A DNA stretch of 64,000 nt from Patescibacteria group bacterium (GCA_041671325.1 JBAZBR010000001.1:415504-479503); one strand, 5' to 3'; positions 6,740 to 55,153 are shown, numbered from the stretch's first letter. The notes: generated by a model not told the origin, from the letters alone. Program-made: numbers and translations.

Positions 6740-6768
6740 TTGAAATTATATCAGTTTTAGTATATAAT
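6740..6768 (+). promoter_or_regulatory. Consensus sigma-70-type promoter (TTGAAA, 17-nt spacer, TATAAT) in the AT-rich spacer upstream of the methyltransferase gene
   Basis: TTGAAA at 6740-6745 and TATAAT at 6763-6768 with an exact 17-nt spacer. Sits in the only ~100-nt intergenic gap of the plus-strand gene array. Confidence 0.5.
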
Positions 6769-6784
6769 TAAACAGAAATTTTTA

Positions 6785-7654
6785 TTGTTAAACAATAACA
6801 CTCATATGACAGTAAAAAAACTAGGTTGGGAAAAATGTCCAGACGGTAACGCTCAATTGTACATGGACAAATGTAAATTATTTGTCGCCGACGAAAAGAG
6901 CTTTGCTAACTTTAAAAGGGACAAGGACTATGGCAAAATTCTAGAAGGAGGCGAGAAAATCGTCGGTGAAATTGCACTAAAAGGTATCTTGAAAATGAAA
7001 GGTCAAACTATTCTGCTGGATAATCTGAAAAAATTCAAAGAAAACGAAATGTACGGTAACCCAATCCTGCATGAATATGAATTAACCGGACCCATGGTGC
7101 CATCCACGCTACGCTACGTCAATACTTATTTGGAAGTCAAGGAACTTACCAAAGATCATAAATTAAAAAAAATAGTTGAGGTCGGAGGAGGTTACGGTGG
7201 GCTTTGTAAAACAATAAGTGTTTTGGAAAACTTTGATGAATACACAATGGTTGATTTACCTCCGGCTATTGCACTTTGTCAAAAATATTTAAATCATTTT
7301 GACAGCATTAAAAACAAAATTAAATACATTTCATGCGAGGATATTAAAAGCCTTGAAGCGATAACTGATGTGGATTTGTTTATCAGTGATTCGGCTCTGG
7401 CTGAATGTGACCTTGAAACGCAAATACTGTACACAAAGACAATTGCAAAAAAATCCAAATTCATTTACGTAAACTTTAACACACTTCATATAAAAAGTGC
7501 GGCAAAGGAAATGAAATTATTTATTAAGAGTTTTCCAAATAAAAAAGTGCAGACATATCAATCTGGCATGGTCACAGCCATAATTATTGACACTACGAAG
7601 GAAGCTTCTCCGAAATTCTTTTCGATCAAAGGTCTAATAAAGAAATTCACTTAG
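6785..7654 (+). CDS. Class I SAM-dependent methyltransferase (putative sugar O-methyltransferase)
   Basis: VEVGGGYGGL glycine-rich SAM-binding motif followed by an acidic residue. Lies within the glycan operon. Confidence 0.55.
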   Translation: MLNNNTHMTVKKLGWEKCPDGNAQLYMDKCKLFVADEKSFANFKRDKDYGKILEGGEKIVGEIALKGILKMKGQTILLDNLKKFKENEMYGNPILHEYELTGPMVPSTLRYVNTYLEVKELTKDHKLKKIVEVGGGYGGLCKTISVLENFDEYTMVDLPPAIALCQKYLNHFDSIKNKIKYISCEDIKSLEAITDVDLFISDSALAECDLETQILYTKTIAKKSKFIYVNFNTLHIKSAAKEMKLFIKSFPNKKVQTYQSGMVTAIIIDTTKEASPKFFSIKGLIKKFT

Positions 7655-39597: not shown

Positions 39598-41448
39598 CTA
39601 GTCTCTTTTTAATACCGCAAAAAAGGCTTCTTGCGGAATATCGACTTTACCCAAGCTTTTCATCCGGCGCTTGCCTTTTTTCTGTTTTTCCAATAATTTC
39701 CTTTTTCGGGTCACATCGCCGCCATACAACTTTGCCGTAACATCTTTCCGCATGGCTGACAAGCTGGCTGAAGCGATTATTTTGGCATTAATTGCCGCTT
39801 GGATCTTCACTTCAAACATCTGCTTTGGTAAAATACCTTTTAAATGTTCAACCACCTGCCGGGCGACTTTATAAGCTTCATCTTGATAAACCATTACGGA
39901 CAAGGCATCAACTTTTTCCCCAGCTACCAGGACGTCCATCCTTTCTACTTCAGCTTTTTCTGAATTGCTGATTTCATAATTTAAGGATGCATAGCCACTG
40001 GAGACACTTTTTAATCTATCATAGAAATCAACTAAAATTCCAGCTAAGGGCAGTTTGGCATGGATTACCACCCGGCTTTCATCTAGGTATTCCGTATTTT
40101 CGTGCTGACCGCGCTTTTCAATGATTAAGCTTAAAATCCCGCCGATATTCGAAGTTGGCGTGACAATATCGGCTTTAGCCCAGGGTTCTTCAATATGCTT
40201 GATATGCGAAGGTTCAGGCAAGTCCAAGGGACTGGTTATGACAACGGTGCCGCTTTTGGCTTCTTTGATGGAAGACTGTTCTTTAACTTTTTTCTCGTGT
40301 GCATGGATTCCGGCTTCGCTTAAAAATATTTTATAAGCCACGGAAGGGACGGTAACGACTAAATCTAAATTATATTCGCGCTTTAAGCGTTCCTGGACAA
40401 TGTCCAAATGCAAGAGGCCTAAGAAGCCGCACCGAAAACCATGCCCCAAGGCTTGGGAATGTTCAGTTTCATAAGAAAGCGCGGCGTCATTCAATTTTAG
40501 TTTGCCTAAAGCTTCTCTTAATAAGGGGAAATCATCACCGGCTTTGGTATACAAGCTGGCATAGACCATGGGCTGTAAATGCCGATAGCCTGACAACGCC
40601 TGATTGGCCGGGGCTTTTTCCAAGGTTAAAGTATCGCCGACTCGCGCATCAGCCACGCTTTTTACGCCAGTGACCACATAGCCGATTTCTCCCGCACCCA
40701 AATTCGGGCAAGAAACAAATTTTGGGTGGAAGTATCCGACCTCTAAGGCTTCGCCCTTGGCCCCAGTAGCCATGAACCTGACATGGTCGCCTTTGCTGAT
40801 TTGGCCTTGAACAATCCTGACAAAAGTGATGACCCCTCGGTAATCGTCAAATTTTGAATCAAAAACCAAAGCCTGCAATGGCTTAAGCAAATCGCCTTTT
40901 GGCAATGGAACTTTTTCAATGACTTTTTCTAAAAGTTCTTTCACGCCTAACCCGCTTTTGGCTGAAACTCTTAAAATTTCCTCTTTTTTGCAGCCCAGCA
41001 ATTTAACCAGCTCCCTTTCACTTTCATCTGGCCTGGCATTAGGCAGATCCACCTTGTTAATTGCCGGGATAATTGTCAAGTCCTGTTCTAAAGCCAAATA
41101 CAAATTTGCCAAGGTTTGGGCTTCCACGCCCTGGGTAGCGTCAACTAAAAGAATCGCGCCTTCTACTGCGGCTAAAGACCGGGAAACTTCATACGTGAAA
41201 TCCACATGCCCTGGCGTATCGATCAAATTCATCTCAAACTCCTGGTTTTGGTATTGATATTGCATCCTGACTGCCGCAAGTTTAATGGTAATTCCGCGTT
41301 CCCTTTCAATATCCATTTGGTCTAAAACTTGGGAACGCATTTCTCTTTTCGATACTGTATTAGTCAATTCCAAAAACCGGTCGGCTAAAGTCGATTTCCC
41401 GTGGTCAATATGCGCAATGATACAGAAGTTACGTATATTCGTACTCAT
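39598..41448 (-). CDS. lepA: Translation elongation factor 4 (LepA)
   Basis: MSTNIRNFCIIAHIDHGKSTLADR (G1), DTPGHVDF (G3), NKVD (G4); 616 aa. Confidence 0.95.
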   Translation of the reverse strand: MSTNIRNFCIIAHIDHGKSTLADRFLELTNTVSKREMRSQVLDQMDIERERGITIKLAAVRMQYQYQNQEFEMNLIDTPGHVDFTYEVSRSLAAVEGAILLVDATQGVEAQTLANLYLALEQDLTIIPAINKVDLPNARPDESERELVKLLGCKKEEILRVSAKSGLGVKELLEKVIEKVPLPKGDLLKPLQALVFDSKFDDYRGVITFVRIVQGQISKGDHVRFMATGAKGEALEVGYFHPKFVSCPNLGAGEIGYVVTGVKSVADARVGDTLTLEKAPANQALSGYRHLQPMVYASLYTKAGDDFPLLREALGKLKLNDAALSYETEHSQALGHGFRCGFLGLLHLDIVQERLKREYNLDLVVTVPSVAYKIFLSEAGIHAHEKKVKEQSSIKEAKSGTVVITSPLDLPEPSHIKHIEEPWAKADIVTPTSNIGGILSLIIEKRGQHENTEYLDESRVVIHAKLPLAGILVDFYDRLKSVSSGYASLNYEISNSEKAEVERMDVLVAGEKVDALSVMVYQDEAYKVARQVVEHLKGILPKQMFEVKIQAAINAKIIASASLSAMRKDVTAKLYGGDVTRKRKLLEKQKKGKRRMKSLGKVDIPQEAFFAVLKRD

Positions 41449-41522
41449 ACAAAATTAAAATTGAGGTGCTCGAGTCTCGCCCCGCACCGTAATTCCGCAC
41501 GAGCGGAATGACTGGTGCGCGG

Positions 41523-41570
41523 GTGGTCAATATGCGCGATTATACAAAAGTTCCGAATGTTTTTAGGCAT
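41523..41570 (-). pseudogene. Divergent duplicate of the lepA 5' end (encodes MPKNIRNFCIIAHIDH then frameshifts/stops)
   Basis: 48 nt about 80% identical to lepA codons 1-16. Located 75 nt upstream of the real lepA start, separated by a GC-rich spacer. Confidence 0.6.
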
Positions 41571-41649
41571 AGATAATAATTAACAGTTTCCCTCTACCTC
41601 TGGGAGAGGGGGTTGGAAGAAACATACTTCTTAAAAATTTAATCATGGT

Positions 41650-43272
41650 TTAATTTGAATTACCCGGCTTATTACCATTATTTACAAAATTCCTGAATTT
41701 TTGCCACCATTGCCTAAAGACTTCCATTTCTTCAACCTTCAGAATTGATGCCAAACACAAGAATATTACAATGCCAAAAATTCCAGAGATTAAACCTTGT
41801 AAAAAGATGCCGACTAAAGTATGCATGTCTACACCCATTGCCACAAAATGCAAAGCTCCCCAAGCGCCAAAACCTGCAAACAATGAGGCGATGACAATTT
41901 TTACGCTTGACTTGGCAATATGCGCATCGTCCAGATTACCCAGCCGGCGTCGAAGCAAAAAATACAGCAAGGACATATTGACTAGACTTGAAATTGAAAA
42001 AGCCAAAGCCACGCCAATAATGCCGAAATGTTTTGAAAGGATGATGGCTCCGGCAATATCAATAACGACTGAAAAAATTCCTACTTTAACTGGGGTGGAA
42101 GTATCATGCAAAGCATAAAACGACCTGGCAATGATCGGGATCAAGGCTTGGGCAAAAATTGACAAGGTGAAAAACCCCAAAACCTGGGCAGTCAAATAAG
42201 TCGCGTTCCAATCAAAAGTCTGGGCGCCCACGACCACCCGGACGATTTGAGCCCGCAAAACTAAAAGCAAGACCGAAGTTGGGATCATGACTACCAATAA
42301 CCTTCGAATGGTTTTTGAAAAATGTTTTTTAAAAGCTTCCATGTCTTGGCTGGCATAAGCCTCGGAAAAAGCGGGAAAAATGGCGATGGCCAAGGAAACC
42401 CCGAAAACATTGATGGGAAAATTCTGGAGATTATTGGCAAAATTAAGCTGGGTTAAACTGCCAGCTGCCAAACTGGAAGCAATAATCGTGCTGACCAGCT
42501 GGTCAATTTGGTTGACAGCCAAGCCAAAAGTCCTGGGTAGCATAAGCTTCCCCACTTCTCTAACGCCTTTATGGCGCCAATTTAATATTCTTTGATAGCG
42601 GAATCCCAGCTTAAAGACGCTGGGGATTTGGATAGCTAAGTGGGCAAAAGCGCCCACGACCACGCCATAAGCCAAACCAATAATCCCCCATTTGGGCACA
42701 AAAAAAATGATGCCGGCGATTATGCCAAGGTTATACAAAACCGGCGCCAAGGCAAAAGCAAAAAACCTTTTGAAGGAATTGAGGATGGCGGAAACAATAT
42801 TACTGGCTCCGAAAAAAATTATGGCCACCAGCATTATCCGGCTTAAGTGGATGGTGGTCTGAAGTTTTTCACCGGAAAAGCCTGGGGCAATTAAAGGCAC
42901 CAAGTGATTGGCAAAAATAAAAAAGATTAGGCCTAAGACAATCAGGACGATCAGTAGCAAGTTCAAGATTGAATTGGCCACGCACCAAGCATCATCTTTC
43001 AGTTCTGGATTCTTTTCCGCCCTTTTTAAATAACTAACAAATACTGGAATAAAAGAGGAGGAAAGAGCGCCCAGCACCAAGACATTAAAGACAAAATCAG
43101 GGAGTTTAAATGCGGCAAAATATGGGTCCAGGTTGCCACCGCCGCCAAAAGTGCTGGCTAGCATCCGATCCCTGACTAAACCCAAAACTCGGCTGGCCAC
43201 GCCAGTAAAACCAATTACGATGGCGCCGCCAAGGATAGTGGTGGAGAGTTTGTGCCAAAGCTTCTTTAACAT
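41650..43272 (-). CDS. murJ: Lipid II flippase MurJ (MviN)
   Basis: 540 aa, about 14 TM, N-terminal VASRVLGLVRDRMLASTFG motif typical of MurJ. Confidence 0.88.
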   Translation of the reverse strand: MLKKLWHKLSTTILGGAIVIGFTGVASRVLGLVRDRMLASTFGGGGNLDPYFAAFKLPDFVFNVLVLGALSSSFIPVFVSYLKRAEKNPELKDDAWCVANSILNLLLIVLIVLGLIFFIFANHLVPLIAPGFSGEKLQTTIHLSRIMLVAIIFFGASNIVSAILNSFKRFFAFALAPVLYNLGIIAGIIFFVPKWGIIGLAYGVVVGAFAHLAIQIPSVFKLGFRYQRILNWRHKGVREVGKLMLPRTFGLAVNQIDQLVSTIIASSLAAGSLTQLNFANNLQNFPINVFGVSLAIAIFPAFSEAYASQDMEAFKKHFSKTIRRLLVVMIPTSVLLLVLRAQIVRVVVGAQTFDWNATYLTAQVLGFFTLSIFAQALIPIIARSFYALHDTSTPVKVGIFSVVIDIAGAIILSKHFGIIGVALAFSISSLVNMSLLYFLLRRRLGNLDDAHIAKSSVKIVIASLFAGFGAWGALHFVAMGVDMHTLVGIFLQGLISGIFGIVIFLCLASILKVEEMEVFRQWWQKFRNFVNNGNKPGNSN

Positions 43273-43656
43273 AGTTTGTGGAATTGAGTTTAGCTGAAAA
43301 GCCCAATAGTTTCAAGGTTTTTTATCGCACGTCTCCAGCTCCGTGAGAAAAAGCTATTATCATTGTCATTGCGAGAAGGCCAGTTTTTGCGGGACGACGC
43401 GGCAATCTCGCTTTACAGTGAAAGATTGCTTCGCTTCTCCCCGCGGCCGCGGGGTCGCCCGCAATAACAGGGTTTATACTGGTCCAAACTAAAAACCGCC
43501 ATCTTTATCAGATAACGGTTATTGGTTCTCCTGGCCGGATTACACCGTGCGAAAGATACCCGCGTCTTGCTTCCATTCATTAGGGAGAGAGTCCTTTTGA
43601 ATTTCATTAAAACGTGAGATCGTAAGAAGGGTAACCCGGCCGGGAGAAAATACTTT

Positions 43657-43767
43657 TGTCATTTCGAGCGAAGCGTAAGCGTAGTCGAGAAATCTCTTTG
43701 TAATAGTTGAGATTCCTCCGCTCGTCCTCGCTTAATCGAACTCGGTCGGAATGACAAAATGAAGTTT
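43657..43767. repeat. Imperfect inverted repeat (~45-nt arms beginning TTGTCATT[TC]CGA...) forming a MITE-like structure. Related motif copies at 43359 and 56480.
   Basis: Left arm ttgtcatttcgagcgaagcg...gaaatctc; right arm (reverse complement) ttgtcattccgaccgag...ggaatctc. Confidence 0.5.
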
Positions 43768-43858
43768 CACCCCGATTATAGTCCTCCTGCCTGAAAAGAC
43801 AAATTTTGTCTTTTCAGGAAGAGGAGCCAGTTTAAACTGACTCACTCAAGGTGCGGTT

Positions 43859-44242
43859 TTAATGCAATTTGAGCAAATTGACTTCGGCTGACCTACCTGA
43901 CCCCAGTTTATAACCAATTACCGAGCGTCCTAACGGAACCAGGTTTGAATCCTTGGCGGTTGCGATTATTACCGCACAAGCACTATCCTGATACAGCCGA
44001 TATGAGTACACGCTGGTATCCAGATCGGCATCAGGATAATAGATGGCCACATTGCTGAACAAAGAATCGCCCGCGTTAAAATGCCTCGACGCATTGACGA
44101 CTATTTGCAAAAGCTGACGCTCGCCTATAAAAGCGGTCTGCTCTTTCGAACGCTCAGTCTTAAGGTCGTTAATATAGCTAACCGCAAAGATTAACGATAA
44201 AGCTACCATAACGAAAAGAACCGTCAACACTCTACTGAACAT
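43859..44242 (-). CDS. Small membrane-anchored/secreted hypothetical protein (island gene)
   Basis: Start reassigned to MFSRVLTVLF..., preceded by AGGAGG 8 nt upstream. The track ORF extends to 44287. N-terminal TM/signal. Confidence 0.5.
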   Translation of the reverse strand: MFSRVLTVLFVMVALSLIFAVSYINDLKTERSKEQTAFIGERQLLQIVVNASRHFNAGDSLFSNVAIYYPDADLDTSVYSYRLYQDSACAVIIATAKDSNLVPLGRSVIGYKLGSGRSAEVNLLKLH

Positions 44243-44353
44243 ACAATATCCTCCTAAATCAACTTTATTTTTTAATCTCTCCCACAACCGACTTTTGTAA
44301 AATCAGCTCTGGGAGAGGAGCCAGAAAAGTATCTGGCTCAAAACGAACAATAC

Positions 44354-44743
44354 TCAATCAAGCGGTGACTGCAGATAATCGTCTGCCAGGCGATAGTATA
44401 CGCCGCAGACGAATGTGGTATCCCCTGAAAAATTCTCATCCCGGTACAGAAATTCCGAAGCTACGAATTTCCGGTTTTGGTTTTTCCATTCCTTGATTTT
44501 CTCATCAATCAACGGTTGTGCGATTGCGCTATCCGCCAAATTGTATTCAACTGGGATTTGAAGAACTAGTGCCGTGGAATCGGGATCTGTCCATGATCCA
44601 TGTGCAACCCCCAGCTCGCCATTAAAAACGATGACGGCGGTGTGGCTTGGAACAAGCCACGCATCCACGGCAATGCCAATCAGAATACCAAAAACCAATC
44701 CGATCGCGAAAACTGCAAAAACATTCCGCATCAAAACCTCCAT
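44354..44743 (-). CDS. Membrane-anchored hypothetical protein (island gene)
   Basis: Likely start MEVLMRNVF, with AAAGGA 10 nt upstream. The track ORF extends to 44824, across a terminator hairpin. One TM. Confidence 0.45.
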   Translation of the reverse strand: MEVLMRNVFAVFAIGLVFGILIGIAVDAWLVPSHTAVIVFNGELGVAHGSWTDPDSTALVLQIPVEYNLADSAIAQPLIDEKIKEWKNQNRKFVASEFLYRDENFSGDTTFVCGVYYRLADDYLQSPLD

Positions 44744-44812
44744 GTTTTGGTTATCCTTTTTTGTTTCTGTTTCTCCCCCACCCGTCGAAATTTTTTCAAC
44801 GCGTAAGGGAAA

Positions 44813-44842
44813 AAGGCAAACCACGGAAGGTTTGCCTATTCT
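44813..44842 (-). terminator. Intrinsic terminator-like hairpin after the 53-aa gene
   Basis: On the minus strand, ggcaaacc-ttccgt-ggtttgcc followed by tttttccc. Confidence 0.45.
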
Positions 44843-44853
44843 GCAATGAAATT

Positions 44854-45015
44854 TCAGCAGATGGAGGTATAATTAAAGCTCCAGGCTAAAGCACTCAAGA
44901 GAACAATTGTCATACCCGCGGGTATGACGAACTTTTTCGGCCGAAGGAACATGATCCCCAGCCCGATAGCCATGGTAAACACTGTGGCTATAAAAACCCT
45001 GGTACACAGATCCAT
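44854..45015 (-). CDS. Small (about 53 aa) two-TM membrane protein
   Basis: Start MDLCTRVF, preceded by AAAAGGAGAGG. The track ORF extends to 45072. Confidence 0.4.
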   Translation of the reverse strand: MDLCTRVFIATVFTMAIGLGIMFLRPKKFVIPAGMTIVLLSALAWSFNYTSIC

Positions 45016-45037
45016 ATCCTCTCCTTTTGTTTTGCAT

Positions 45038-45466
45038 TTAGTAATAAATGAACCTAAACAATTCTTTGACAACCGGGATGCACGAAGTCTTGGTTAGCTT
45101 TTTGGCAAGCCAGGAAAACCCAACCAAGACCAGACCAACGAGGGCAATTATGTAGTGATCCGAAGCGTTTTCCAAACCCTCGGTTGGATTTTTTACCAAT
45201 GCGGTGAAAAATCCAAACAGAAACAGGATAACGCCAACTATCAGTGAACTGGCCGCGAAATATACCACATAATACTTTGCGGTTATTTCCAGCCGGCGTC
45301 CACACAAATATGTAACGCATCCAAAAATCAGGTATGGCCATATAATGTAGTAAGCCAATCCTGGAACGTACCTGATTGGTAAGGTAACCATTAAAACTGC
45401 CAACAAAGCTGTTAACAGGGTGCAAACCATGACCCCGATCTCAAAAAATGTTTTCGTAAAAGTCAT
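45038..45466 (-). CDS. Polytopic (about 4 TM) membrane protein, unknown function
   Basis: Likely start MTFTKTFFEIG, with GGAGG 5 nt upstream. The overlapping other-frame ORF at 45054..45425 is judged spurious. Confidence 0.45.
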   Translation of the reverse strand: MTFTKTFFEIGVMVCTLLTALLAVLMVTLPIRYVPGLAYYIIWPYLIFGCVTYLCGRRLEITAKYYVVYFAASSLIVGVILFLFGFFTALVKNPTEGLENASDHYIIALVGLVLVGFSWLAKKLTKTSCIPVVKELFRFIYY

Positions 45467-45577
45467 CCAAACCTCCATGTTTGTTCATTTTTATTTCCTC
45501 TGAAAAGACTTTGTTTAAAATCTGTTCAGAGGAAATGGCGAAGTTTTTGAGGCTTCGCCAATCCAAAGAAAGTTACA

Positions 45578-46282
45578 TCACAGCTTGGTGATGTGCAAAC
45601 AAACATCGATGCCGTGGCCAATGGCAGGCGCCGTCAAGATGACGCTGATTGTTGAATTTGATGGCAATGCCAGGTCTATCGAAAACTTTTTATTTTCCAA
45701 AGACCATTTATAGGTTATGCCGTCAATCGTAACCAGTAAATCCTGCAAAGGCTGGTCATTCTGGGTTTCAGCGCTGAACTCCAGTCGATACGAACCGATT
45801 GGGTTCATGAGAAGCCAATTGATGACCTTATCGCACCCTTTCAGGTGCCCGCAGAATTTTTCACCGAGGTTGAGAGTGTCAGTGACGTAAACCGTATCCA
45901 CATGGCTACTATCGATAACGATCAGAGTAGACTCAGGCGGAACAACCCAGACGCCGTGTGAAGCTGTGGCAGTTTGGCCATCAGTCGAATTGACCAGCAG
46001 GCCAAAATCGAAATATCCGGTATCACTCAACCTGCCCTCAAAATAAGGCAAGTGAGTAATTACAGAATCTTTCAGATACCAGCTTGCTTGGTAGGGCTGC
46101 TGTCCACCGGTAATAGTTGCGAAAAGAAAAAACTTCTCGCCGACGTAGACAGTGTCAGGCCCCAGGATTCCGGCTTCCAGTTTCCCATACACTTCGGGTG
46201 AAACTGGATTGACCTGTTTTTCCGCGCAACCGGCAAAGATTGCCAGAAACGCCACGAACACGAGGAGGATAAACTGCTTCAT
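45578..46282 (-). CDS. Putative lipoprotein (signal peptide + AIFAGC lipobox-like cysteine), unknown function
   Basis: AGGAGG 9 nt upstream of the ATG. MKQFILLVFVAFLAIFAGC signal. Confidence 0.5.
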   Translation of the reverse strand: MKQFILLVFVAFLAIFAGCAEKQVNPVSPEVYGKLEAGILGPDTVYVGEKFFLFATITGGQQPYQASWYLKDSVITHLPYFEGRLSDTGYFDFGLLVNSTDGQTATASHGVWVVPPESTLIVIDSSHVDTVYVTDTLNLGEKFCGHLKGCDKVINWLLMNPIGSYRLEFSAETQNDQPLQDLLVTIDGITYKWSLENKKFSIDLALPSNSTISVILTAPAIGHGIDVCLHITKL

Positions 46283-47283
46283 TAGTGTTTACCTCCTGAG
46301 ATCGTGAACTGATAGGCAATAATCACACGAACGTGCGAATTCTCCCATTCAACTTCTTCGGTACCCCGCTGGTACACATACACTGGAGTCCAGACAGCAG
46401 CCAGAACCCAGCTTTTTGCGAAAGTCACCTGAGCCCCAAGCTCGGGTCCAGTTCGTTTCTCACCCCAGGGACCGTCGAAGTACCGGTTAATTTCGCTTCG
46501 TTGCCCACCAAAAATGAGTTCAAATGGTTTCTCCAACCAAGGTCGCACAAGAACATGGACTGAGCCGTATCTATAGATGTAGCTCATTTCTTCCTTGCAG
46601 TATGTACGATCTTCGCGGTAGAAAGAATAACCGCCCTCCAAAGCAATACGGAAGCGGTCATTCCCCCACTGAAGACATGCTATTGGCATAAAGCGTTCAG
46701 CCGGCGTATACGCTACGCCAATGCCGAACCAAATCCGGTTGTCGAAGTGATTAATCACTTCAGTTTTATAATTATTAACAACCGGCGCTAGTTTTGGCTG
46801 GGCGGCAAAAGCCGAATCAATTGAGTGCTGCATTTCTGCCGGTGTAACATACCGGTCGAACTGCACCACTTCGATAACGACTTTTCGATGATCGCCACCG
46901 ATTTTTTTCTCGTTATCCGGGTCAGGCATTCGTGGCCAGATCAAATCGCGAGGAGTGCCGCATTCTTTCAAATGCAAAGCGGCCCATTCATAGCGACTGA
47001 CCTTTAAAGCAGCTTCCAGCACGTCTTCCTTAGTCGGCGTATCGAATTTCAATCCGTCGACATAAGAATAAATCTTGATATAACGATGCTGGAATGCACA
47101 GACCGAATCAGTCAGCATTTGGAATACTGCCTGATTCTTTTTAGCCAGTTCCACCTGGCTCATGCCTTTTCCTGGTGCAAATCCAGAAATTTCTTTGCTT
47201 ATGATCACGGTTTCAGCCAAAGCCGAAACCGAAAAAATCACAAGCATGAGAAACGAAAGCAAGACTATCGTGAGTTTCTTCAC
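46282..47283 (-). CDS. Secreted protein with beta-strand-rich C-terminal half (possible outer-membrane beta-barrel)
   Basis: GTG start preceded by GGAGGT. Signal peptide MKKLTIVLLSFLMLVIFSVSALA. Alternating hydrophobic pattern in the last ~170 aa. Confidence 0.45.
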   Translation of the reverse strand: MKKLTIVLLSFLMLVIFSVSALAETVIISKEISGFAPGKGMSQVELAKKNQAVFQMLTDSVCAFQHRYIKIYSYVDGLKFDTPTKEDVLEAALKVSRYEWAALHLKECGTPRDLIWPRMPDPDNEKKIGGDHRKVVIEVVQFDRYVTPAEMQHSIDSAFAAQPKLAPVVNNYKTEVINHFDNRIWFGIGVAYTPAERFMPIACLQWGNDRFRIALEGGYSFYREDRTYCKEEMSYIYRYGSVHVLVRPWLEKPFELIFGGQRSEINRYFDGPWGEKRTGPELGAQVTFAKSWVLAAVWTPVYVYQRGTEEVEWENSHVRVIIAYQFTISGGKH

Positions 47284-47400
47284 TAAGTTACCTCCATGCT
47301 AAGGGTTTTTTCAATAATACGTTTTGTTGTTGGTTTTGCTAAAATATCTTAATTTTCAAGATGACTTTAGTAAAACTAACAAACCTCTATTAGGTTTATT

Positions 47401-47429
47401 ATATTATTTCTAATTGAGCCTTCTGTCAA
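47401..47429 (-). promoter_or_regulatory. Consensus sigma-70 promoter (TTGACA, 17 nt, TAATAT) about 110 nt upstream of the 333-aa secreted-protein gene
   Basis: Minus strand: ttgaca gaaggctcaattagaaa taatat. A 9-bp GC hairpin (47451-47483) lies just upstream. Confidence 0.5.
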
Positions 47430-47754
47430 AAATATGAAAAATAAATTGATGGTGTGCGGTTGCCCGAAAGCATTCCGCACACCACCATTTTTCCTTTTAC
47501 TTCGCCCGGTTTACGAATTTGCAACGAGAAAAAGCAAAAGGTCTTTAGCATATGGCTGTCTTGCCATGGTTGTGGTGCCAAGCATACCACCAGCCCGAAA
47601 TCATCTTCGGGTCCGAGGATCCAACCAAGTGATTATCTGATTGGAAATTTTTGTGAGGTTCTCCCACATTCCGCAGGACAAATTGCTTTCTCCTGCCGAA
47701 TGCAAGAAGGAAAACCACAGCGGTTCTCCTTCTAAAACGAACAGCTTATTTCCG

Positions 47755-47910
47755 TTATTCCAGTACTTCGCATCTTGCTTTCACTTCCGAAGGAATGAAC
47801 CCCAACGCGACATCGGCTGAAATGTCTCCGTCGTCCACTTTTGCGTCGAGAGCTCTATAGAACTCCTCAAACGCTAAGTCAAACTCGGCTTGCTCTTCAT
47901 GTGTCGCCAT
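47755..47910 (-). CDS. Small acidic protein (about 51 aa)
   Basis: Start MATHEEQ, preceded by AAAGGA 7 nt upstream. The track ORF extends to 47973. Confidence 0.35.
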   Translation of the reverse strand: MATHEEQAEFDLAFEEFYRALDAKVDDGDISADVALGFIPSEVKARCEVLE

Positions 47911-47962
47911 GTTTTCATCCTTTCTGGTGACCGAATTTTTGTCTTTAGTTTGTTTTTCGCGG

Positions 47963-48175
47963 CTACTCCACAACTCTTACGAGAATAGCCTCTTTCGCTG
48001 CAGCTCCTTCCATGGCGATTTCCATTCGCAATGGTTGTGTATTCAGTATTCCCACCAAACCGACAATGGCATCAAGAATAGCAGGCACGATTAAAACTGT
48101 TTTTCCATAAAATAACCATCCAGTTACGCAATAAAGCGCTGTTGCCAAAGCCGCATAAGATATAAGCCTCATCAT
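47963..48175 (-). CDS. Small (70 aa) two-TM membrane protein
   Basis: AAGGAGA 3 nt upstream of ATGATG; hydrophobic. Confidence 0.45.
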   Translation of the reverse strand: MMRLISYAALATALYCVTGWLFYGKTVLIVPAILDAIVGLVGILNTQPLRMEIAMEGAAAKEAILVRVVE

Positions 48176-48915
48176 TGCAAGATCTCCTTGTAATGGTTTA
48201 TTCGTTCATTTTTATACTTTCAAAAACAAGATTAAAGACGATTTAAAACCCCATCAAACCATCATCTTCACTGTTGTTTTAAAAAATTTGGGAGAGCGAG
48301 GGCCGAAGCCTCTCGCTCTCACCGGGGAGGAAGGAGGTGAACAATAAACATGCTTTACCAGGGAAGCTCCTTGGGATTTGACGAAAGAGAATGCGGCACT
48401 TGTCCCAGTGGATTGGAGCTTCCCTGATTTTTTTCTTTTTCCAAAAATACCAGTTTTATTGATACGCTTGGAAAAAGAGGCAACCGACCCTAATAAGCCA
48501 GTCGCCTCAAAATTTGGTTTCGCCTTGGAAACCTGCTTTTGTATGGCAATAAAGCCGCAAGCACCGCTAACGAAACTAGGCATTTTTATCAAAACAGGTG
48601 CCGCCTGTTGACCCGTACATCTTGCTGTCCTGCAACAGTCAAAATACCTACGGGTCCGAGGCCGTTCCCTAAGATACCAGGAAACTGATTTTTCAAGGCA
48701 ATTTCTGCCCGCAATTTACTTTTATAAAAATATTATAAAGGAAAATTCCCGAAAGAAATAATGGGAGGAGAGGATTTTGGGGTCCTACTCCTCCCTGGGC
48801 ACCATATGAAAGAAAATGAGGCAATGAGGCTAAGTGAGGCTTTTTAGTTTTTCTTTTTCTCTACTTTATTAAATAGTGGACAAGCAGAATTTCGGAAAAA
48901 TGATCGAACTATCGC

Positions 48916-49395
48916 TTAATTCTTGACAGCAAGACCGACAAAGAAGCCTATGACTAAAATAATGGGTATAACTCCCAATGACCAGTTGCCCAAGTTTGAC
49001 TTGATACGGATGGCTACCGCATTACCCCCGTCAAACGAGATCAACTCATAGGTCTGGGTAGTAAAATGTCCCGAATTCAAAACCGGGATATCCCAAGTCT
49101 TCATTTCGCGTCCAGCCGAAATTGAGATTATTCCACATTCAACTGAATCATGTGTGAGGTACGTCATAACCGCAAAGTCGTCTTCGGAAGTTTTAACTTC
49201 CGGCTCGACTCTGTTTACGGAATTCACGAAAGCGTCTCTTACCACATCGGAAAACGTCGCGCTTTGTAGCAACGTTTCAATCTGCGCCGTTTCATAAGCA
49301 GAAACGGTGACGTCGAAAACGGTGGCAGTTTTGGCAATCACAGGGTATGCCACAACACAGATCACGAATACGAGAATGATTGTCTTAAAATTCAT
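48916..49395 (-). CDS. Secreted/anchored hypothetical protein (signal peptide + C-terminal TM)
   Basis: TAGGAGC RBS-like element upstream. N-terminal signal; C-terminal VIPIILVIGFFVGLAV anchor. Confidence 0.5.
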   Translation of the reverse strand: MNFKTIILVFVICVVAYPVIAKTATVFDVTVSAYETAQIETLLQSATFSDVVRDAFVNSVNRVEPEVKTSEDDFAVMTYLTHDSVECGIISISAGREMKTWDIPVLNSGHFTTQTYELISFDGGNAVAIRIKSNLGNWSLGVIPIILVIGFFVGLAVKN

Positions 49396-49436
49396 TTCGA
49401 GCTCCTAAGCTAAATTGTTTATTTTACGTTTTTCCC

Positions 49437-49509
49437 TTTTTTCAACCGACGAAATTGCTTCTTCGGCTGGAAAAATCGCAGGATGCCGGATGGCATCCTG
49501 CAAAATGAC
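49437..49509 (-). terminator. Copy 1 of a repeated ~70-nt intergenic cassette: 10-bp GC hairpin (gcaggatgcc-NNNN-ggcatcctgc) + U-tract, then a conserved spacer leading into the next RBS
   Basis: Near-identical copies at 49776-49846 and 50985-51058. Each sits between consecutive minus-strand genes. Confidence 0.65.
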
Positions 49510-49749
49510 CTAATGCAAGCCAAGGTCTCTTGGGTTGACCTTAGTTAACACTATTAATATGGTCACCATCATCAAGCAAAATTCAAAAATTGCGGTGGTG
49601 AAGAAGCCAATACCCACTCCTATAATGATTGATGTGGGTTGCGCTTCAAATAAAGTGATGATTATCACCGCTATTGCTACTCCCAATCCTGAAGCGATCA
49701 CTAGATTGAGAGCCAATATCACCAACAGCGCTTTCATTTGAATTTTCAT
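49510..49749 (-). CDS. Small (79 aa) two-TM membrane protein
   Basis: AAGGAGA RBS-like element 5 nt upstream; flanked on both sides by the cassette. Confidence 0.5.
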   Translation of the reverse strand: MKIQMKALLVILALNLVIASGLGVAIAVIIITLFEAQPTSIIIGVGIGFFTTAIFEFCLMMVTILIVLTKVNPRDLGLH

Positions 49750-49775
49750 TTATTTCTCCTTTTTGTTTTTTTCTC

Positions 49776-49846
49776 TTTTTTCAACCGGAGAATTGCATCT
49801 TCGGCTGGAAAAAACGCAGGATGCCGGATGACATCCTGCAAAAGAG
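49776..49846 (-). terminator. Copy 2 of the repeated terminator cassette
   Basis: The same hairpin, with gacatcctgc in the second arm, followed by a U-tract. Confidence 0.65.
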
Positions 49847-50937
49847 CTAGTCTTCTTCGTAAGACCGGCAGACTTCACGTTTGATCTCATCAAAAACTAG
49901 GCGACTCGATCTAGCTTTGCGAGGAATCCGAGTTGGATTAACCCGATCTACAAAACTGCAAAGCGCTACTTGCGATCGCTGATATTGCTCTTCCAGCTTT
50001 TCAAGCCAGCGCCTTTTTTGTGCCTCCTCTCTCGCTCGTTTGATATCCTGCTCATCAAACTTTTTCAGAACAGCGTTTCCAATCACAATAGCTATGAAAA
50101 CTACGCAGAAGGTCCCGACAGCAAGATACATGACGTTCGCGGAATGAGTGGCGTTGAAGATCCGGCCCAGCACCATGAAAATGACAAAAGTCAAAATCGG
50201 GTAGATAGGCCGGAACATCCACAACCATGGCTTATTCCAGTACCAGGACTGATCCCAATAAATATATTTGGGTTCGCCAGAAAATATATCAATCCGGAAA
50301 GGGTTGACATATTTCCAATTTGGCACTCGGCCGATTGCCAGGTTCCACAGGCAAACCACGGCATTGACCAAAACCATAAAAATCCAACCAATTGCCACAA
50401 TAAACGGCTGGAGGGAATAGGCCGGAAAAATCCGGCGACGGCGCATATGGCATTGGTCAAAAGCTGGATGGGTAAACCAGAAATTTACCCATTTCCAGTC
50501 CCAGGGTTTGGCCGGAAACAGTTTCGGATCAACAGCAACGGTTTCCATCGCTTGGTCCATGGTGTTTTCCAGGTCATTGAGAAACGCCGAATTGCCACTA
50601 TTTAAAACTGTTGTACGATATTTACTATCCGACCTGCTAAGGTAGTTATCCTCAGGAGAAGACAGCTTTATTCCATTTTCAGTCTTATCCCAGCAAATGG
50701 TGATGAAAATTCGGTGTGCACCTGAGGATTTGAAGGGAATGTAAAAAGCTAGTTCCGACAGAGGCCGGATATATCGATGCTCATTTTTTTTCTTGACCGA
50801 ATAATCAACGATCAAGACGCATGGGTTTTCTCGGCTTTCACTTTTCAGCTTAGCCAAGGTTTCGGCGTTCGTGCACCACCTGACCACTGTGGTCGGATTG
50901 GCTGCGACTTTACTCTCAACAAACAACTGAAGCATTT
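49847..50937 (-). CDS. Hypothetical membrane protein (about 363 aa: N-terminal soluble domain, 3 TM, C-terminal charged coiled-coil-like tail)
   Basis: Start reassigned to MLQLFVESKV, with AAGGAGG 4 nt upstream. The track ORF extends to 51091, reading through the repeated cassette. No recognisable domain. Confidence 0.5.
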
Positions 50938-50984
50938 TTCCTCCTTTGAATTTTAGCTTCTTTTTAATTCTGTTTTTTAGTTTT

Positions 50985-51058
50985 TCTCTTTTCAACCGAC
51001 GAATTGCTTTATCGGCTGGAAAAAGTGCAGGATGCCGGATGGCATCCTGCAAAATGAC
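50985..51058 (-). terminator. Copy 3 of the repeated terminator cassette
   Basis: The same gcaggatgcc/ggcatcctgc hairpin followed by a U-tract. Confidence 0.65.
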
Positions 51059-51094
51059 TTTTCGAGATAGTCCTACTGTCACAAACGACATTGA

Positions 51095-51478
51095 TTAAGG
51101 CCGCCAATGCCGTTCCTCAAAGTCAAGGTGTTCAACTTGACCAAGAGGAAGATAGAAAACTGCGATCGTATCAAGGGAACCATCATCCTTTTGCCAAAAA
51201 CACAGTTTTTGTCCGTATGACGGCAACGCGTCGTTCACGCGCACAGATGGAAAATTTTGCTCAGTGAGCGTATCAAAAGGCGGTTCTTTGCCAACCGCCA
51301 CAAAATAATCAACGACAACTTTCGTCTCGCCGTCGATTTTGACGGTATGTACTCTGTAGCTGAGTACATCAGCTTCCTTCGGAATCCCTTTACTTATCAG
51401 GCTCATGCCCCAGCCAACCGAAAAAATGATAGCAAGAGCTATTACGACCACGATAACGTTACTTGTTCTTCTGTTCAT
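51095..51478 (-). CDS. Small membrane-anchored hypothetical protein (127 aa)
   Basis: AGGAGG 5 nt upstream; N-terminal TM VIVVVIALAIIFSVGWG. Confidence 0.5.
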   Translation of the reverse strand: MNRRTSNVIVVVIALAIIFSVGWGMSLISKGIPKEADVLSYRVHTVKIDGETKVVVDYFVAVGKEPPFDTLTEQNFPSVRVNDALPSYGQKLCFWQKDDGSLDTIAVFYLPLGQVEHLDFEERHWRP

Positions 51479-51618
51479 TTCTACCTCCTGTTAAACATTT
51501 AGTTTTTAATTTTTTCATTTTCTCATCTCGAATAACCTTTTGAAAAGATTAACCGGGACGAAAGCAGAGTTTAAGAAAATGTAAATTTTTAGGTACTCTG
51601 CAAAACCCTCAATTTCTA

Positions 51619-51861
51619 CTAATCAGTCTCCATGTAAAGCACGAGAGCATCACGAAGACTTTTGTACAGCCATATGCCTATACTTATGATCCAGTTTGTC
51701 ACATAAGCAATACCAACAAACACGACTGCTAGAGTTAACCCCGCAATTGGCCACTTAACATCCTTAAGAGTAAATGAACAGTGGTAGAAGAAAAAAAGGT
51801 ATACTGGACAAAAAATTATATACCTTTGAGTCTTTTTCCAAAACATTGGGAACTCAGACAT
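51619..51861 (-). CDS. Small (80 aa) two-TM membrane protein
   Basis: GAAGGA RBS-like element upstream; hydrophobic. Confidence 0.4.
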   Translation of the reverse strand: MSEFPMFWKKTQRYIIFCPVYLFFFYHCSFTLKDVKWPIAGLTLAVVFVGIAYVTNWIISIGIWLYKSLRDALVLYMETD

Positions 51862-52077
51862 TTTTTCCTTCTTTCAAAATTGGTTTATTTTCTTCTATTT
51901 ATTTGAAGACATAAAATCCAAATATCTTGAATTAATCTTTATCTCCCCAAGTAAATAGAAAAAATTGTCAAGGTGCCTTCCCTTTTCTCGCAATTATTCA
52001 AAATCGCTTTACTTAACATACCCGCGCTTGCATGGCAAAAACCAGATCCTCCCAAAAAGCGTGGTATGAGAGCGCCT

Positions 52078-52195
52078 GTCTTTAAATAAAGGCTGCTTTT
52101 TTGCCCTTGCTCTCTCGGCAAAAAAGCCAGTAAATGCGATTTTTATGAATTAACAAACAACAGGGAAATATAGTCTATTTCTTGAATTTTGTCAA
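52078..52195 (-). ncRNA. Candidate small RNA / transcription attenuator: consensus sigma-70 promoter followed ~80 nt later by an intrinsic terminator
   Basis: Minus strand: TTGACA (plus 52190-52195), 17 nt, TATATT (plus 52167-52172). Hairpin ggcttttttgcc / ggcaaaaaagc(ag)cc at plus 52091-52130, followed by UUUAUUU. Confidence 0.35.
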
Positions 52196-52320
52196 GCCCA
52201 TGTACCACTAAGGTTAGCCATTTTTATTCCTCCCAAACCCGTTCCAGTCTTCGGCTTTCCCGCACCCGCCTTCGATACCTTTGCAAGGGGAGGAGCTTAA
52301 AGAATTTTGTATAAAAAATT

Positions 52321-52358
52321 GGATTAAAAAGAGCTTCTGCAATTTCTGCAAAAGCTCT
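52321..52358 (-). terminator. Terminator-like hairpin after the 909-aa gene
   Basis: Minus strand: agagcttttgcag-aaa-ttgcagaagctct followed by ttttt. Confidence 0.4.
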
Positions 52359-52423
52359 CATTTGTTCATTTTACACATATGGACTTTCCAAGTTTCCAGG
52401 TGTGTAGGCTAAAGACCGGTTTT

Positions 52424-55153
52424 TTACTTAACCAAGAGCATTTTCTTGGTTTGGGTGAAAGATCCAGCAGACAAGCGATAAAAATAAACCCCCGAAGCGT
52501 ATCTGGAAGCCTCCCAGGTTTTGGCGTACTCGCCCGCTTCCTGGTATTCATTCAATATCGTTTCCACTTTCTGGCCCAGAAGGTTATAGACTTCCAGGCT
52601 GACTTCGCCGGCTTGAGGCAAAGTATAACTGATGGTCGTAGTTGGGTTAAAGGGATTGGGATAATTCTGGCTCAAAGCAAATTCTTTAGGCAGAGAAACA
52701 TCTTCCTCTGTTTCAGTATTTTGCTTCATTAATCCAGAACCGCTGGCGTTGAACTTGCCCATGATAAATCCATTAGTATAATCCCAGCCATAGCCTTCAG
52801 CCCGCCACCAGTAAGCCTGGTACAGAAAGCTGGAACCCGTGGACAAGAAAGAGTGGATAGCGCTGGAATACTGGCCATAGCGACAGGCCATGACGACATC
52901 AGCGTAACCGTCGCCATTGATGTCGCCCATTTGCATATACGGCATGGCATCCAGACTGTAGGAATCAAAATGCCACCACCAGCCTCGGTAATTAAAGCCT
53001 GAACCCGTGGAAAGAAAAGCCAGAAGCGCAGTTTCGCTTGGGCCATAACGGCAGGCCATGACTAAGTCTGATTTGCCGTCGCTATTCAAGTCGCCCATTT
53101 CCATGAACTTCATGGCATCTAGACTGAACCAGCCATCAGCCCAGAACCAGTACGGCACATAATTGAAGTAAGTGCCGTTGGTAAGGAATACATGGAGGGC
53201 GGTACTGGCTGGACCATACTTATAAGCCATGACAATATCGTCCCCGCCATCACCATTCAAATCGCCCGCGCTTACGAACTTGACGGCTTCGGCGCAGTAC
53301 CAGCCCGGCGCATGCCACCAGCCTTCATTACCCTGGTATATGAAATTCGTACCAGTGGAAAGCAGGACATGGATGCGAGTATCGCAACTACCGTAATTAT
53401 AGACTACGGCGATATCATCTTTGCAATCGCCGTTAAAATCCCCAGACACCGCGCCCTTGATGGCATAAGTGCAATAGCCGTTTGATTGCCACCAATAAAC
53501 CTGGTATTCAAAGCTTGAACCCCGGCTTAGAAGCATGTGAATGCCCACGCTGGATTCGCCATATTTGTAAATCATGGCAATATCCGTCAAGCCATCGCCG
53601 TTATAATCCCCGGCTATGCTCTTAAAAACGTACTGCAGGCAATAATTATTGAGGATTTTCCAGCCATCATTGCCTTGGTAGGCGAAGTTAGAGCCGTTGG
53701 AAAGCAGTACGTGCGCGCGGGTTTGGCAACCGCCGTAATCATACAAAACCGCCAGATCAGACTTGGGATCAACGATGCCAGTTGAGATGTGCACCTGGAT
53801 TGGCCAGACTTGCGTACCCGCAGCATTGTAAGCGTAAACAGTTCCCCCGCGCTCTTCCATCCGGCCAGTCTTGAAGTATTGGACATTGCCTTCGCGATCG
53901 CGGGTTGGCGCGCCAATGACCCAAGCCCCGGCTTCCTGGATGTTGGTATAGGTATCCAGGAAGTTTCCATACAAATAATAAGCTTCGTTGGTGGCTTCGG
54001 GATTGGTGTAATTGCGGGGGTCATAGAAAATCATGCCCCTGCCCCGCGCTCCCCAATTGAATTCTTGGACGCAATAATCCGTGGCCCGGCCAAAAGCTGG
54101 CCAATTGGAGACGACCTTTCCCATCGCCTCGCCAACCATTTGCCTGGCACCGTTTCTTTCATACGCCCGAGCAATCAAGTATGAGTGCTGGTTATCCCAG
54201 CCGGAATTTGTCCAGCCTGGCGCGCAATTCGGATATTGGTTTACGGAAACCGAACTGCCGTTCCAGTACAAGTAGCCTTTTTGGAAGTCCTGCCTGGCAT
54301 TGCCGTAACCCGCATACTCATTGTTTATAGGCATGCCCAGCGAACTTTGCGGACCATTCAAACTGTTCCACTTGCCGTAAAAGCCGGTTTTTACCACGTA
54401 GGCTTTTCTGGCACCGCCTAAAGCGTCATAAACAATGGCACAAGCACCATAAACAGTACCGAAATAATCCTCACGATAACAGCGTCGGGCGCAGTTATTG
54501 GCATCATAGCGGTCGTTGCTGTCCCAATTTCCCGGCCACCATGCCACGTTACTGACCTTGTTCCCAATGCTGCTGCCATGACGGACTTTCTCAACTTCAA
54601 AGATGTTGCGGTTGAGAGAAGTGTAACGATGTTGACCATCATCTGAATAAGAACAGTTCGATGGCCCAGTTGGCGTCCCGATATCCTCGAAATTCCACGG
54701 AATCGAACTTCCATTCACCGCGGTTTGATGTTGGTAGTGAATATGTGGCCCAGTTGAATTTCCGGTAGTACCACACATTCCTATGACTTGCCCTTGCACA
54801 ACGTACTCGCCAACTTTAACTACGACGCTTTGCAAATGAGCTAAACGGTCATACGATGATTCACCTATTTTTATCTCAACGGTATTGCCCCAACCATCGT
54901 TATAACCACCACCATCATACACGGCAGCTACAACTCCCGAATTCGACGCTAAAACTGGTTTGTTTAAGTCACTTGTACTGATTGTCCCCCAATTGAAATC
55001 GAATCCATATCTGTAGACACTTACATGTCCACATTGATCCTGTCCGCGGCTGCACCACCAAGTTTCCCCATACATAAATGGGGCTTTCGTACCAGCTATA
55101 GCAGTGGACACAATAGCCATAGCCAATACGACAACAGTAAATACCTTCTTCAT
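52424..55153 (-). CDS. Large secreted multidomain protein: N-terminal M23 (LytM) metallopeptidase domain, central FG-GAP/VCBS repeat region, C-terminal T9SS-type sorting domain (Por secretion tail)
   Basis: AGGAGG 9 nt upstream; signal peptide. M23 motifs H..L......G..V..G..IG..G.TGNSTGPHIHY. At least six GDxNGDG repeats. Por-tail C-terminus (NYPNPFNPTTTISYTLP...GVYFYRL). Confidence 0.7.
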   Translation of the reverse strand: MKKVFTVVVLAMAIVSTAIAGTKAPFMYGETWWCSRGQDQCGHVSVYRYGFDFNWGTISTSDLNKPVLASNSGVVAAVYDGGGYNDGWGNTVEIKIGESSYDRLAHLQSVVVKVGEYVVQGQVIGMCGTTGNSTGPHIHYQHQTAVNGSSIPWNFEDIGTPTGPSNCSYSDDGQHRYTSLNRNIFEVEKVRHGSSIGNKVSNVAWWPGNWDSNDRYDANNCARRCYREDYFGTVYGACAIVYDALGGARKAYVVKTGFYGKWNSLNGPQSSLGMPINNEYAGYGNARQDFQKGYLYWNGSSVSVNQYPNCAPGWTNSGWDNQHSYLIARAYERNGARQMVGEAMGKVVSNWPAFGRATDYCVQEFNWGARGRGMIFYDPRNYTNPEATNEAYYLYGNFLDTYTNIQEAGAWVIGAPTRDREGNVQYFKTGRMEERGGTVYAYNAAGTQVWPIQVHISTGIVDPKSDLAVLYDYGGCQTRAHVLLSNGSNFAYQGNDGWKILNNYCLQYVFKSIAGDYNGDGLTDIAMIYKYGESSVGIHMLLSRGSSFEYQVYWWQSNGYCTYAIKGAVSGDFNGDCKDDIAVVYNYGSCDTRIHVLLSTGTNFIYQGNEGWWHAPGWYCAEAVKFVSAGDLNGDGGDDIVMAYKYGPASTALHVFLTNGTYFNYVPYWFWADGWFSLDAMKFMEMGDLNSDGKSDLVMACRYGPSETALLAFLSTGSGFNYRGWWWHFDSYSLDAMPYMQMGDINGDGYADVVMACRYGQYSSAIHSFLSTGSSFLYQAYWWRAEGYGWDYTNGFIMGKFNASGSGLMKQNTETEEDVSLPKEFALSQNYPNPFNPTTTISYTLPQAGEVSLEVYNLLGQKVETILNEYQEAGEYAKTWEASRYASGVYFYRLSAGSFTQTKKMLLVK

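Follow-up and report, generated by a model that had tools for sequence, protein, structure and literature searches.

The gene spacers considered here lie in a 64,000-nucleotide (nt) stretch of DNA from a Patescibacteria group bacterium (GCA_041671325.1, JBAZBR010000001.1:415504-479503), the whole of which is called the window below. At 48.9-51.9 kb, five co-oriented small genes were found on the minus strand, each with a Shine-Dalgarno (SD) sequence and encoding, in the order of transcription, proteins of 80, 127, 362, 79 and 159 amino acids (aa). The spacers that follow the 127-, 362- and 79-aa genes contain copies A, B and C of one element, which is composed of two adjacent hairpins, H1 and H2 (Table 1).

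Structure of the element and the genes it separates

A repeat search of the window gave one family of three 94-nt copies, 76-81% identical without gaps and all on the minus strand; according to the copy, the element itself extends over 85-94 nt. Its 24-nt core, GCAGGATGCC-ATCC-GGCATCCTGC, occurs at exactly three minus-strand sites of the 64 kb, with 0, 1 and 0 mismatches, and was found in none of 100 shuffled sequences. When read as sense RNA, each module follows the stop codon in the order UUUU, H1 (a 10-bp GC stem with a 4-nt loop), U5-6, H2 and A4-6, and an A-rich spacer then leads to an SD sequence and ATG. The H1 stem is a perfect 10-bp helix in copies A and C, and a single C->T change in copy B turns one G-C pair into G-U. 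The copies A, B and C start 47, 8 and 9 nt past the stop codons of the 127-, 362- and 79-aa genes and are separated from the next ATG, preceded by an SD sequence in every case, by 57, 31 and 47 nt; in copy B, the ATG of the 79-aa gene follows the end of H2 after only these 31 nt.

In the alignment of the copies, the conserved block stretches from about 8 nt 5' of the hairpin to about 25 nt 3' of GGTTGAAAA. The segment CCAGCCGA...GGTTGAAAA is conserved among the copies and folds as the second hairpin, H2, which consists of CCAGCCGA, a loop ending in a GCAA apex, and UCGGUUG, its 3' strand terminating in an A/G-rich run. According to RNAfold, the outer 5' strand of H2 is formed by the U-tract, which is paired with the A-run at the H2 base, and the two adjacent hairpins have energies of -34 to -36 kcal/mol (z from -5.2 to -7.3 against shuffles). 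Identical sequence is present in independent assemblies, namely an ENA contig, two NCBI metagenome-assembled genomes and a Logan contig. The latter (SRR6484324, 1577 bp, designated L019) starts inside copy A and stops inside copy C, so that assembly of the locus from short reads is broken up by the 90-nt repeats.

The H1 of all three copies resembles a terminator, having 11-12 pairs, of which 6-7 are G-C, a 4-nt loop, T5-6 and an energy of -16 to -21 kcal/mol. It has the sequence features and the location of intrinsic terminators, namely a GC stem-loop with a U-tract, positioned 3' of the stop codon and on the transcribed strand, and the gap of 0-2 nt between H1 and H2 places the pair among the tandem-hairpin, or V-shaped, terminators as defined in WebGeSTer (PMC3013805).

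The original prediction, made from the sequence alone, spoke of near-identical elements between consecutive co-oriented genes, with a GC hairpin and a U-tract as their core. Both statements hold: there are three copies, all within the same 1.7-kb stretch of the window, and all score as terminator-like. The downstream part, taken there for a conserved spacer, is indeed conserved, but it folds as another hairpin, one strand of which is the U-tract. Reading of one copy by an open reading frame (ORF) was also noticed correctly. A 414-aa ORF at 49847-51091 spans copy A and is an over-extended annotation: the 362-aa gene is publicly annotated as 414 aa (P0001) from 51091, 156 nt too early and with copy A translated, and the SD-preceded ATG at 50935 gives the 362-aa protein, from which position the family members align.

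The separated proteins had been described as lacking any recognisable function, and library searches agree with this. The 127-, 79-, 159- and 80-aa proteins have neither a library match nor detectable relatives in the syntenic islands, and the small proteins belong, by exact look-up, to clusters of just 1-2 members at 90% identity. Sequence searches in PHROGs, PADLOC, NCBIfam and PDB gave nothing usable, and no relatives of the 362-aa protein were found in Pfam, NCBIfam or PDB. The latter protein is, nevertheless, no orphan, as a HMMER scan gave 908 representatives of its family at E <= 1e-3, with C162, R165, C326, K352 and C356 invariant. Its AlphaFold model is confident (predicted local distance difference test 89, predicted template modelling score 0.78) and shows an N-terminal beta-sandwich, weakly resembling FN3/Ig domains, and then long helices.

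Table 1. Genes, promoter-like sites and two-hairpin modules of the island (window coordinates)
Feature	Position	Strand	Remarks
Best sigma-70-like promoter of the region	52167-52195	-	TTGACA-17-TATATT, 11/12; ~300 nt upstream of the 80-aa gene
80-aa gene	51619-51861	-	First gene of the presumed operon
Weaker two-hairpin spacer	3' of the 80-aa gene	-	
127-aa gene	51095-51478	-	N-terminal membrane anchor; no family match
Copy A	50961-51054	-	3' of the 127-aa gene; covariance model 62.5 bits
Copy A, parts	H1 51027-51050; U-tract 51020-51024; H2 + A-run 50989-51019	-	Followed by an A-rich tail
362-aa gene	49847-50935	-	Ig/FN3-like beta-sandwich, then helices; conserved Cys; large uncharacterised family
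Copy B	49750-49843	-	3' of the 362-aa gene; covariance model 61.5 bits
Copy B, parts	H1 49816-49839; U6 + H2 + A6 49776-49814	-	One G-U pair in H1
79-aa gene	49510-49749	-	Hydrophobic, two transmembrane segments
Copy C	49412-49505	-	3' of the 79-aa gene; covariance model 63.4 bits
Copy C, parts	H1 49478-49501; U5 + H2 + A6 49437-49475	-	
159-aa gene	48916-49395	-	Signal peptide and C-terminal transmembrane segment; last gene served by the three copies
Degenerate module	48436-48508	-	H1, U5, UUUUUCCAAG...UUUUUGGAAAAA; gene-poor stretch
Module after 51-aa gene	47666-47733	-	H2 with the same GCAA apex; matches L017 spacer 1405-1473
Sigma-70-like site	47429-47401	coding strand	10/12
Module after 234-aa gene	45493-45559	-	UUUCCUCUGAA...UUCAGAGGAAA
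Module	44770-44837	-	UUUUUCCCUUACGCGUUGAAA...CGACGGGUGGGGGAGAAA; type also in L020, L022, L025
Module after 156-aa gene	44277-44339	-	CUCUCCCAGAGCUGA...UCGGUUGUGGGAGAG; type also in L020, L022, L023, L025
Last island module	43783-43842	-	Directly followed by the TTGTCT-16-TATAAT promoter and the murJ leader

Conservation in related genomes and the island-wide layout

The relatives of MurJ bear the names Parcubacteria, Kerfeldbacteria or Patescibacteria. Contigs with MurJ orthologues 75-91% identical were compared, and their gene order is conserved: murJ-lepA-bPH_2-... is preceded upstream by a run of small genes, all on one strand and variable in content. In the Parcubacteria contig L017 (MurJ 85% identical), six spacers with TTTTTCCAGCYGA...YCGGYTGAAAA were found, and the H1 in front of it is different in each. 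From nine copies, three of the window and six of L017, a covariance model of H2 was built. Across 169 kb, it matched exactly these nine copies (55-64 bits), all in spacers and on the coding strand, as well as one degenerate copy at 48434-48479 (16.6 bits), and it gave nothing in the relatives with 75-79% MurJ identity.

Nucleotide identity between the window and L017 reaches 84% in H2 and is 77% in murJ and 74% in lepA, and the 362-aa gene and its L017 homologue, 35% identical in amino acids, have no detectable DNA similarity. L017 holds two tandem paralogues of the 362-aa protein. In the nine H2 copies, 96.8% of the cells are paired and three pairs are altered on both sides, and G-U pairs occur on the sense strand only. 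H2 is often capped by a GNRA-type loop that sits on a short A-U helix, and the pair closing the loop covaries (the loop is GCAA in copies A-C and in the module at 47700, and GCGA, GUAA and GAAAA in L017). At the 3' end of H2, GGTTGAAAA stands in the window copies and GGCTGAAAA in 4 of the 6 L017 copies. The folding and covariation analysis proposed with the original prediction has given stable folds of the window copies and compensatory changes across the nine copies. As for H1, it is 24/24, 23/24 and 24/24 identical among the window copies yet varies freely in L017, which points to local homogenisation.

A motif search, also proposed at that time, revealed no related copy in three public collections. 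The 24-nt H1 core gave no matches in viral contigs and one match in 185,579 species-representative (GTDB) genomes, a hairpin of Methylococcaceae, which was rejected as a relative on account of its other context and the absence of a U-tract and H2. The H2 pattern was likewise absent from viral contigs, and its 13 matches in JGI metagenomes, all without H1, were rejected as well, most of them being one conserved gene that reads straight across the pattern. The two DNA collections searched with the H2 pattern do not contain the source contig.

Every spacer was folded in the islands of the window, L017, L020, L022, L023 and L025. Nearly every one in these six genomes has the same H1-H2 layout with other sequences: H1 is directly followed by a pyrimidine-rich strand, which pairs with a purine-rich strand 20-45 nt downstream (for example, CUCUCCCAGAG...UGUGGGAGAG or UUUCCUCUGAA...UUCAGAGGAAA). 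Some subtypes of the module are common to four or five genomes. In a scan of the whole window, H1-H2 modules were met solely between 43.8 and 51.1 kb. The element of the three spacers is less singular than first thought and represents one sequence subtype of an island-wide two-hairpin layout.

The sense fold is more stable than the antisense one in 24 of 26 modules (mean difference -7.2 kcal/mol, Wilcoxon p ~1e-6), and 80 G-U pairs were counted on the sense strand against 32 on the antisense strand. Better folding of the sense strand argues for a function in the transcript, not as double-stranded DNA. The last island module stands directly before the promoter of the murJ leader, which assigns its H2 to the 3' end of the preceding gene and not to the leader that follows.

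The content of the islands differs from genome to genome. Only the 362-aa family is common to the islands of the window and L017, and gene number differs among L020, L022 and L023.

Possible roles of the module

The strong coding-strand promoters of the island are only those at 52195, 47429 and ~43800, the last of these (TTGTCT-16-TATAAT) standing after the last module, and the site at 52195-52167 is presumed to be the promoter of the operon. The distance from the end of H2 to ATG is 25-60 nt, and a consistent -10 box was found in none of the copies. As copy B leaves no room for a promoter and there is no such box, the module-separated genes appear to be co-transcribed by read-through. For the same reasons, GGTTGAAAA was rejected as a promoter.

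What is established is how the module is built, that it is restricted to the island, that H2 is conserved in a second genome, where it shows compensatory changes, and that the sense fold is favoured. The three copies appear to be the youngest members of an RNA module specific to this lineage, which would be an uncommon form of ordinary terminator. Their near-identity is best read as a result of recent local duplication or gene conversion, by which H1 would have been homogenised most, and the copies are best regarded as belonging to an older family that marks every gene boundary of a fast-turnover island of small membrane and secreted proteins beside murJ in this Parcubacteria clade. In our opinion, the module is a leaky tandem-hairpin (V-shaped) terminator or a 3'-end module stabilising mRNA, used within operons of this lineage and locally homogenised, to which we assign a probability of about 0.55. 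A role at the RNA level, in attenuation or processing, seems to fit best the sense-strand G-U pairs, the compensatory changes and the lack of promoter room in copy B. Of the tight and uniform control suggested originally, the part concerning attenuation or processing of RNA may be retained, and the part concerning recombination cassettes may not.

The five genes (51861->48916) would be transcribed from the promoter at 52195-52167, and H1 would halt only a part of the polymerases at each junction, so that expression would drop stepwise along the array; in addition, H1 would cap the 3' end of terminated or processed mRNA. In read-through RNA, H2 would form and bury the U-tract in a helix of 14-19 bp, which could shield the junction from endonucleases. 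Alternatively, this helix could be cleaved as a defined double-stranded site, giving hairpin-protected ends. The H2 helices have 14-19 pairs with 1x1 internal loops, and the sites of RNase III are irregular double-stranded RNAs of about 20 bp or more. Related irregular RNase III processing hairpins lie between consecutive cistrons of one transcript in the early genes of phage T7. The H2 hairpins are similar to them in being sequence-related and located between cistrons, and cleavage would here, too, leave hairpin-protected ends. However, H2 is at the lower limit for RNase III, each H2 stands behind a terminator, and cleavage is only putative.

With canonical L-shaped terminators, H1 shares a GC-rich stem of 10-12 bp, a 4-nt loop, 5-6 U and a position close 3' of the stop codon on the coding strand. 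It differs from them in that it lies between tightly spaced co-oriented genes without promoters between them, that the sequences are near-identical, and that the U-tract is also one strand of a second helix. V-shaped terminators, with two immediately adjacent hairpins, are catalogued but rare, accounting for 1,615 of 1.23 million (0.13%) in WebGeSTer (PMC3013805), and clusters of hairpins were reported as termination units by Gupta and Pal (PMC8355165). In contrast to both, H2 is a conserved and covarying sequence family, an A-run and not a U-run follows the second hairpin, and the layout is limited to one island, where it is the rule. Rfam gave no match in the window at the gathering score, and at E <= 1 across 43200-52500 there were just two chance-level matches, both located elsewhere than the module.

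Several points weigh against this interpretation. Termination efficiency, read-through and processing are all deduced from sequence. H1 looks strong in the three copies (-16 to -21 kcal/mol, U5-6), and expression of the genes behind it might be very low unless an antitermination factor, or promoters that escaped recognition, are at work. Termination is decided before H2 has been transcribed, and H2 cannot, therefore, tune H1 directly; what H2 itself would do is the least secure part of this interpretation. Several sister modules have CUCUCCC instead of a U-rich tract behind H1, so termination may not be the common denominator. The 26 modules were chosen by eye on the sense strand, a selection that may favour the sense bias, and strand composition, with a pyrimidine-rich 5' arm and a purine-rich 3' arm, adds to this bias. 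Finally, the search covered 64 kb of a 618-kb contig.

Strong H1 terminators inside an apparent operon call for control of read-through, and H2 might be a protein- or factor-binding RNA site that controls the island, such as a nut/boxB-like site where a processive antiterminator is loaded before the following terminator is reached, or an operator through which a translational repressor acts on the following gene. Conservation of the H2 sequence above that of housekeeping genes and the common GNRA-type apex with its covarying closing pair are in line with this idea. We consider it rather unlikely, however, as no candidate binding protein was found, H2 is present also where no gene follows, the sister modules keep the architecture but not the sequence, and the spacing from H2 to the downstream start varies (25-60 nt). 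A broader suggestion is that H2 is a site devoted to recognition, either by an RNA-binding antiterminator or processing factor or by a folded-strand recombinase whose gene lies elsewhere, and that it punctuates and controls a hypervariable array of surface-protein cassettes beside murJ in a Parcubacteria clade, as a system for organising cassettes that is unrelated to integrons; in our estimation, this is quite unlikely. If H2 were indeed a factor-binding or recombination site, this would be a new way to organise gene cassettes.

Cassette recombination was another explanation considered, in which the modules would be integron/attC-like or other site-specific recombination sites, each small gene would form a mobile cassette together with its module, and the island would be an array of such cassettes, with the recombinase encoded elsewhere. 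There are parallels with attC arrays of integrons and clusters of attC sites lacking integron integrases (CALIN), namely small co-oriented and mostly promoterless genes of uncharacterised function, each followed by a structured imperfect palindrome that is much better conserved than the flanking genes. Moreover, gene content at the fixed site beside murJ is strongly variable, with the 362-aa family alone shared by the window and L017, and the flanks around the three near-identical copies are unrelated. Nevertheless, no recombinase, integrase or transposase was found among the ORFs of the 64 kb, although this absence is not decisive alone, because integrase-less arrays exist. The RYYYAAC...GTTRRRY cores (R''/R') are absent: the 5' ends are TTTTGCAGG or TTTTTCC, and the four L017 copies ending in GGCTGAAAA lack GTT. 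In place of a single long hairpin with bulges there are two independent ones, folding favours the sense strand, H1 varies freely between copies, and relatives carry diverged orthologous modules at corresponding positions, which vertical descent would predict. The integron- or gene-cassette-like reading of the original prediction was not borne out by these features, although the module-flanked content does vary among relatives, and recombination of cassettes looks very doubtful.

No better prospects can be seen for a small non-autonomous mobile repeat inserted beside terminators, similar to repetitive extragenic palindromes (REP) and bacterial interspersed mosaic elements (BIME), miniature inverted-repeat transposable elements or palindrome-associated transposable elements. 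Near-identity over about 90 nt between unrelated genes, the ~40-nt palindrome of H2 with its T5...A5 ends, and the breaks caused by the repeats in short-read assembly could be explained in this way. At the same time, the 64 kb contain just three copies, clustered in 1.7 kb, and the six L017 copies are all in the syntenic island. No target-site duplications surround the 85-94-nt unit, and its T5/A5 ends belong to the H2 palindrome. The core is absent from viral contigs, and the GTDB representatives and JGI metagenomes gave unrelated matches only. Every spacer already carries some H1-H2 module, so no empty sites were seen. In enterobacteria, REP/BIME are repeated palindromes in operon spacers, which can block 3' exonucleases and attenuate transcription. 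The module resembles them in its repeated palindromes within operon spacers, but it is not dispersed in the 64 kb, has no GTAG head and is coupled to a terminator hairpin, and neither a REP-associated tyrosine transposase nor a Y1 or other transposase was seen in the window. Within the 64 kb, the copies stand only at the gene boundaries of one 1.7-kb stretch.

Highly improbable is a double-stranded DNA operator or promoter element, in which H2 would be an inverted repeat for a dimeric regulator and TTGAAA a -35 box: H2 is palindromic, TTGAAA-17-CAGAAT in copy A scores promoter-like and the H2 of the last module contains the -35 box belonging to a good TATAAT promoter, but the spacing of the half-sites is variable (13-17 nt), the stem changes are compensatory with G-U pairs on one strand only, 4 of the 6 L017 copies read CTGAAA, no -10 box is conserved and copy B has no promoter room. 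A DNA-uptake sequence, a diversity-generating retroelement, an array similar to CRISPR or tandem interspaced guide RNA (TIGR) and a type I toxin-antitoxin system were dropped on copy number, missing partner genes or antisense terminators.

To our knowledge, almost nothing is known about transcription units, terminators and mRNA processing in Patescibacteria, which are not growable alone. A covarying second hairpin joined to a terminator at every gene boundary is a concrete and testable RNA signal, and its confinement to an island of rapidly changing small envelope proteins provides a handle on the expression of surface proteins in these episymbionts. The modules also mislead gene callers, as seen from the 414-aa ORF across copy A and from genes in L017 that are probably called on the wrong strand.

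Other features of the locus

In L017, two genes are called on the minus strand at 5737-7120. The plus strand of the same region contains SD-preceded ORFs at ~5822-6311 and ~6424-6870, both followed by an H1-H2 module, and the strand given in the public gene calls is probably wrong. In the window, the 740 nt at 48176-48915 of the minus strand contain no convincing gene. The degenerate module lies there, together with one long-range hairpin, a mini-ORF of 10 codons (MFIVHLLPPR) and, at ~48286-48320, a very strong terminator with a UUCG loop. Cassettes in decay or a small RNA may be present in this stretch.

The long leader of murJ, downstream of the TATAAT promoter, contains a conserved structured-RNA candidate of about 115 nt (window 43530-43648, minus strand). 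Its relatives are at 7654-7775 in L017, 9752-9867 in L020, 9810-9925 in L022, 9712-9828 in L023 and ~2860-2975 in L025. RNAalifold gave 34 pairs, 10 of them with compensatory changes, in five sequences, and there was no Rfam match. This RNA could be a riboswitch or another cis-regulatory RNA for the gene of the lipid II flippase.

At the island start in relatives, tandem pairs of a non-coding element of about 79 nt were noticed, GAGGGAGCGGTATCGCG...GGGCTTCGGTCC..., each with CTCACCTCCAGATCG behind it, a sequence similar to the anti-SD end of 16S rRNA. Such pairs are located at 7170-7248 and 7331-7409 in L022 and at 8256-8332 and 8417-8493 in L023, and similar sequence is present at ~5880-5990 in L020 and 1-200 in L025.

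The ORFs of the window encode sugar-nucleotide enzymes, glycosyltransferases, peptidases, MurJ, LepA and a histidine kinase. No match to defence systems was found in the window, and a tRNA search gave no tRNA genes. The GC content is 28-39% in the polysaccharide/glycosyltransferase cluster (1-33000) and 42-48% in the murJ/lepA island (40000-54000). A 909-aa protein encoded at 52424-55153 on the minus strand contains an M23 peptidase, FG-GAP repeats and Por_Secre_tail, a sorting signal of type IX secretion, which is unexpected in a genome labelled as Patescibacteria.

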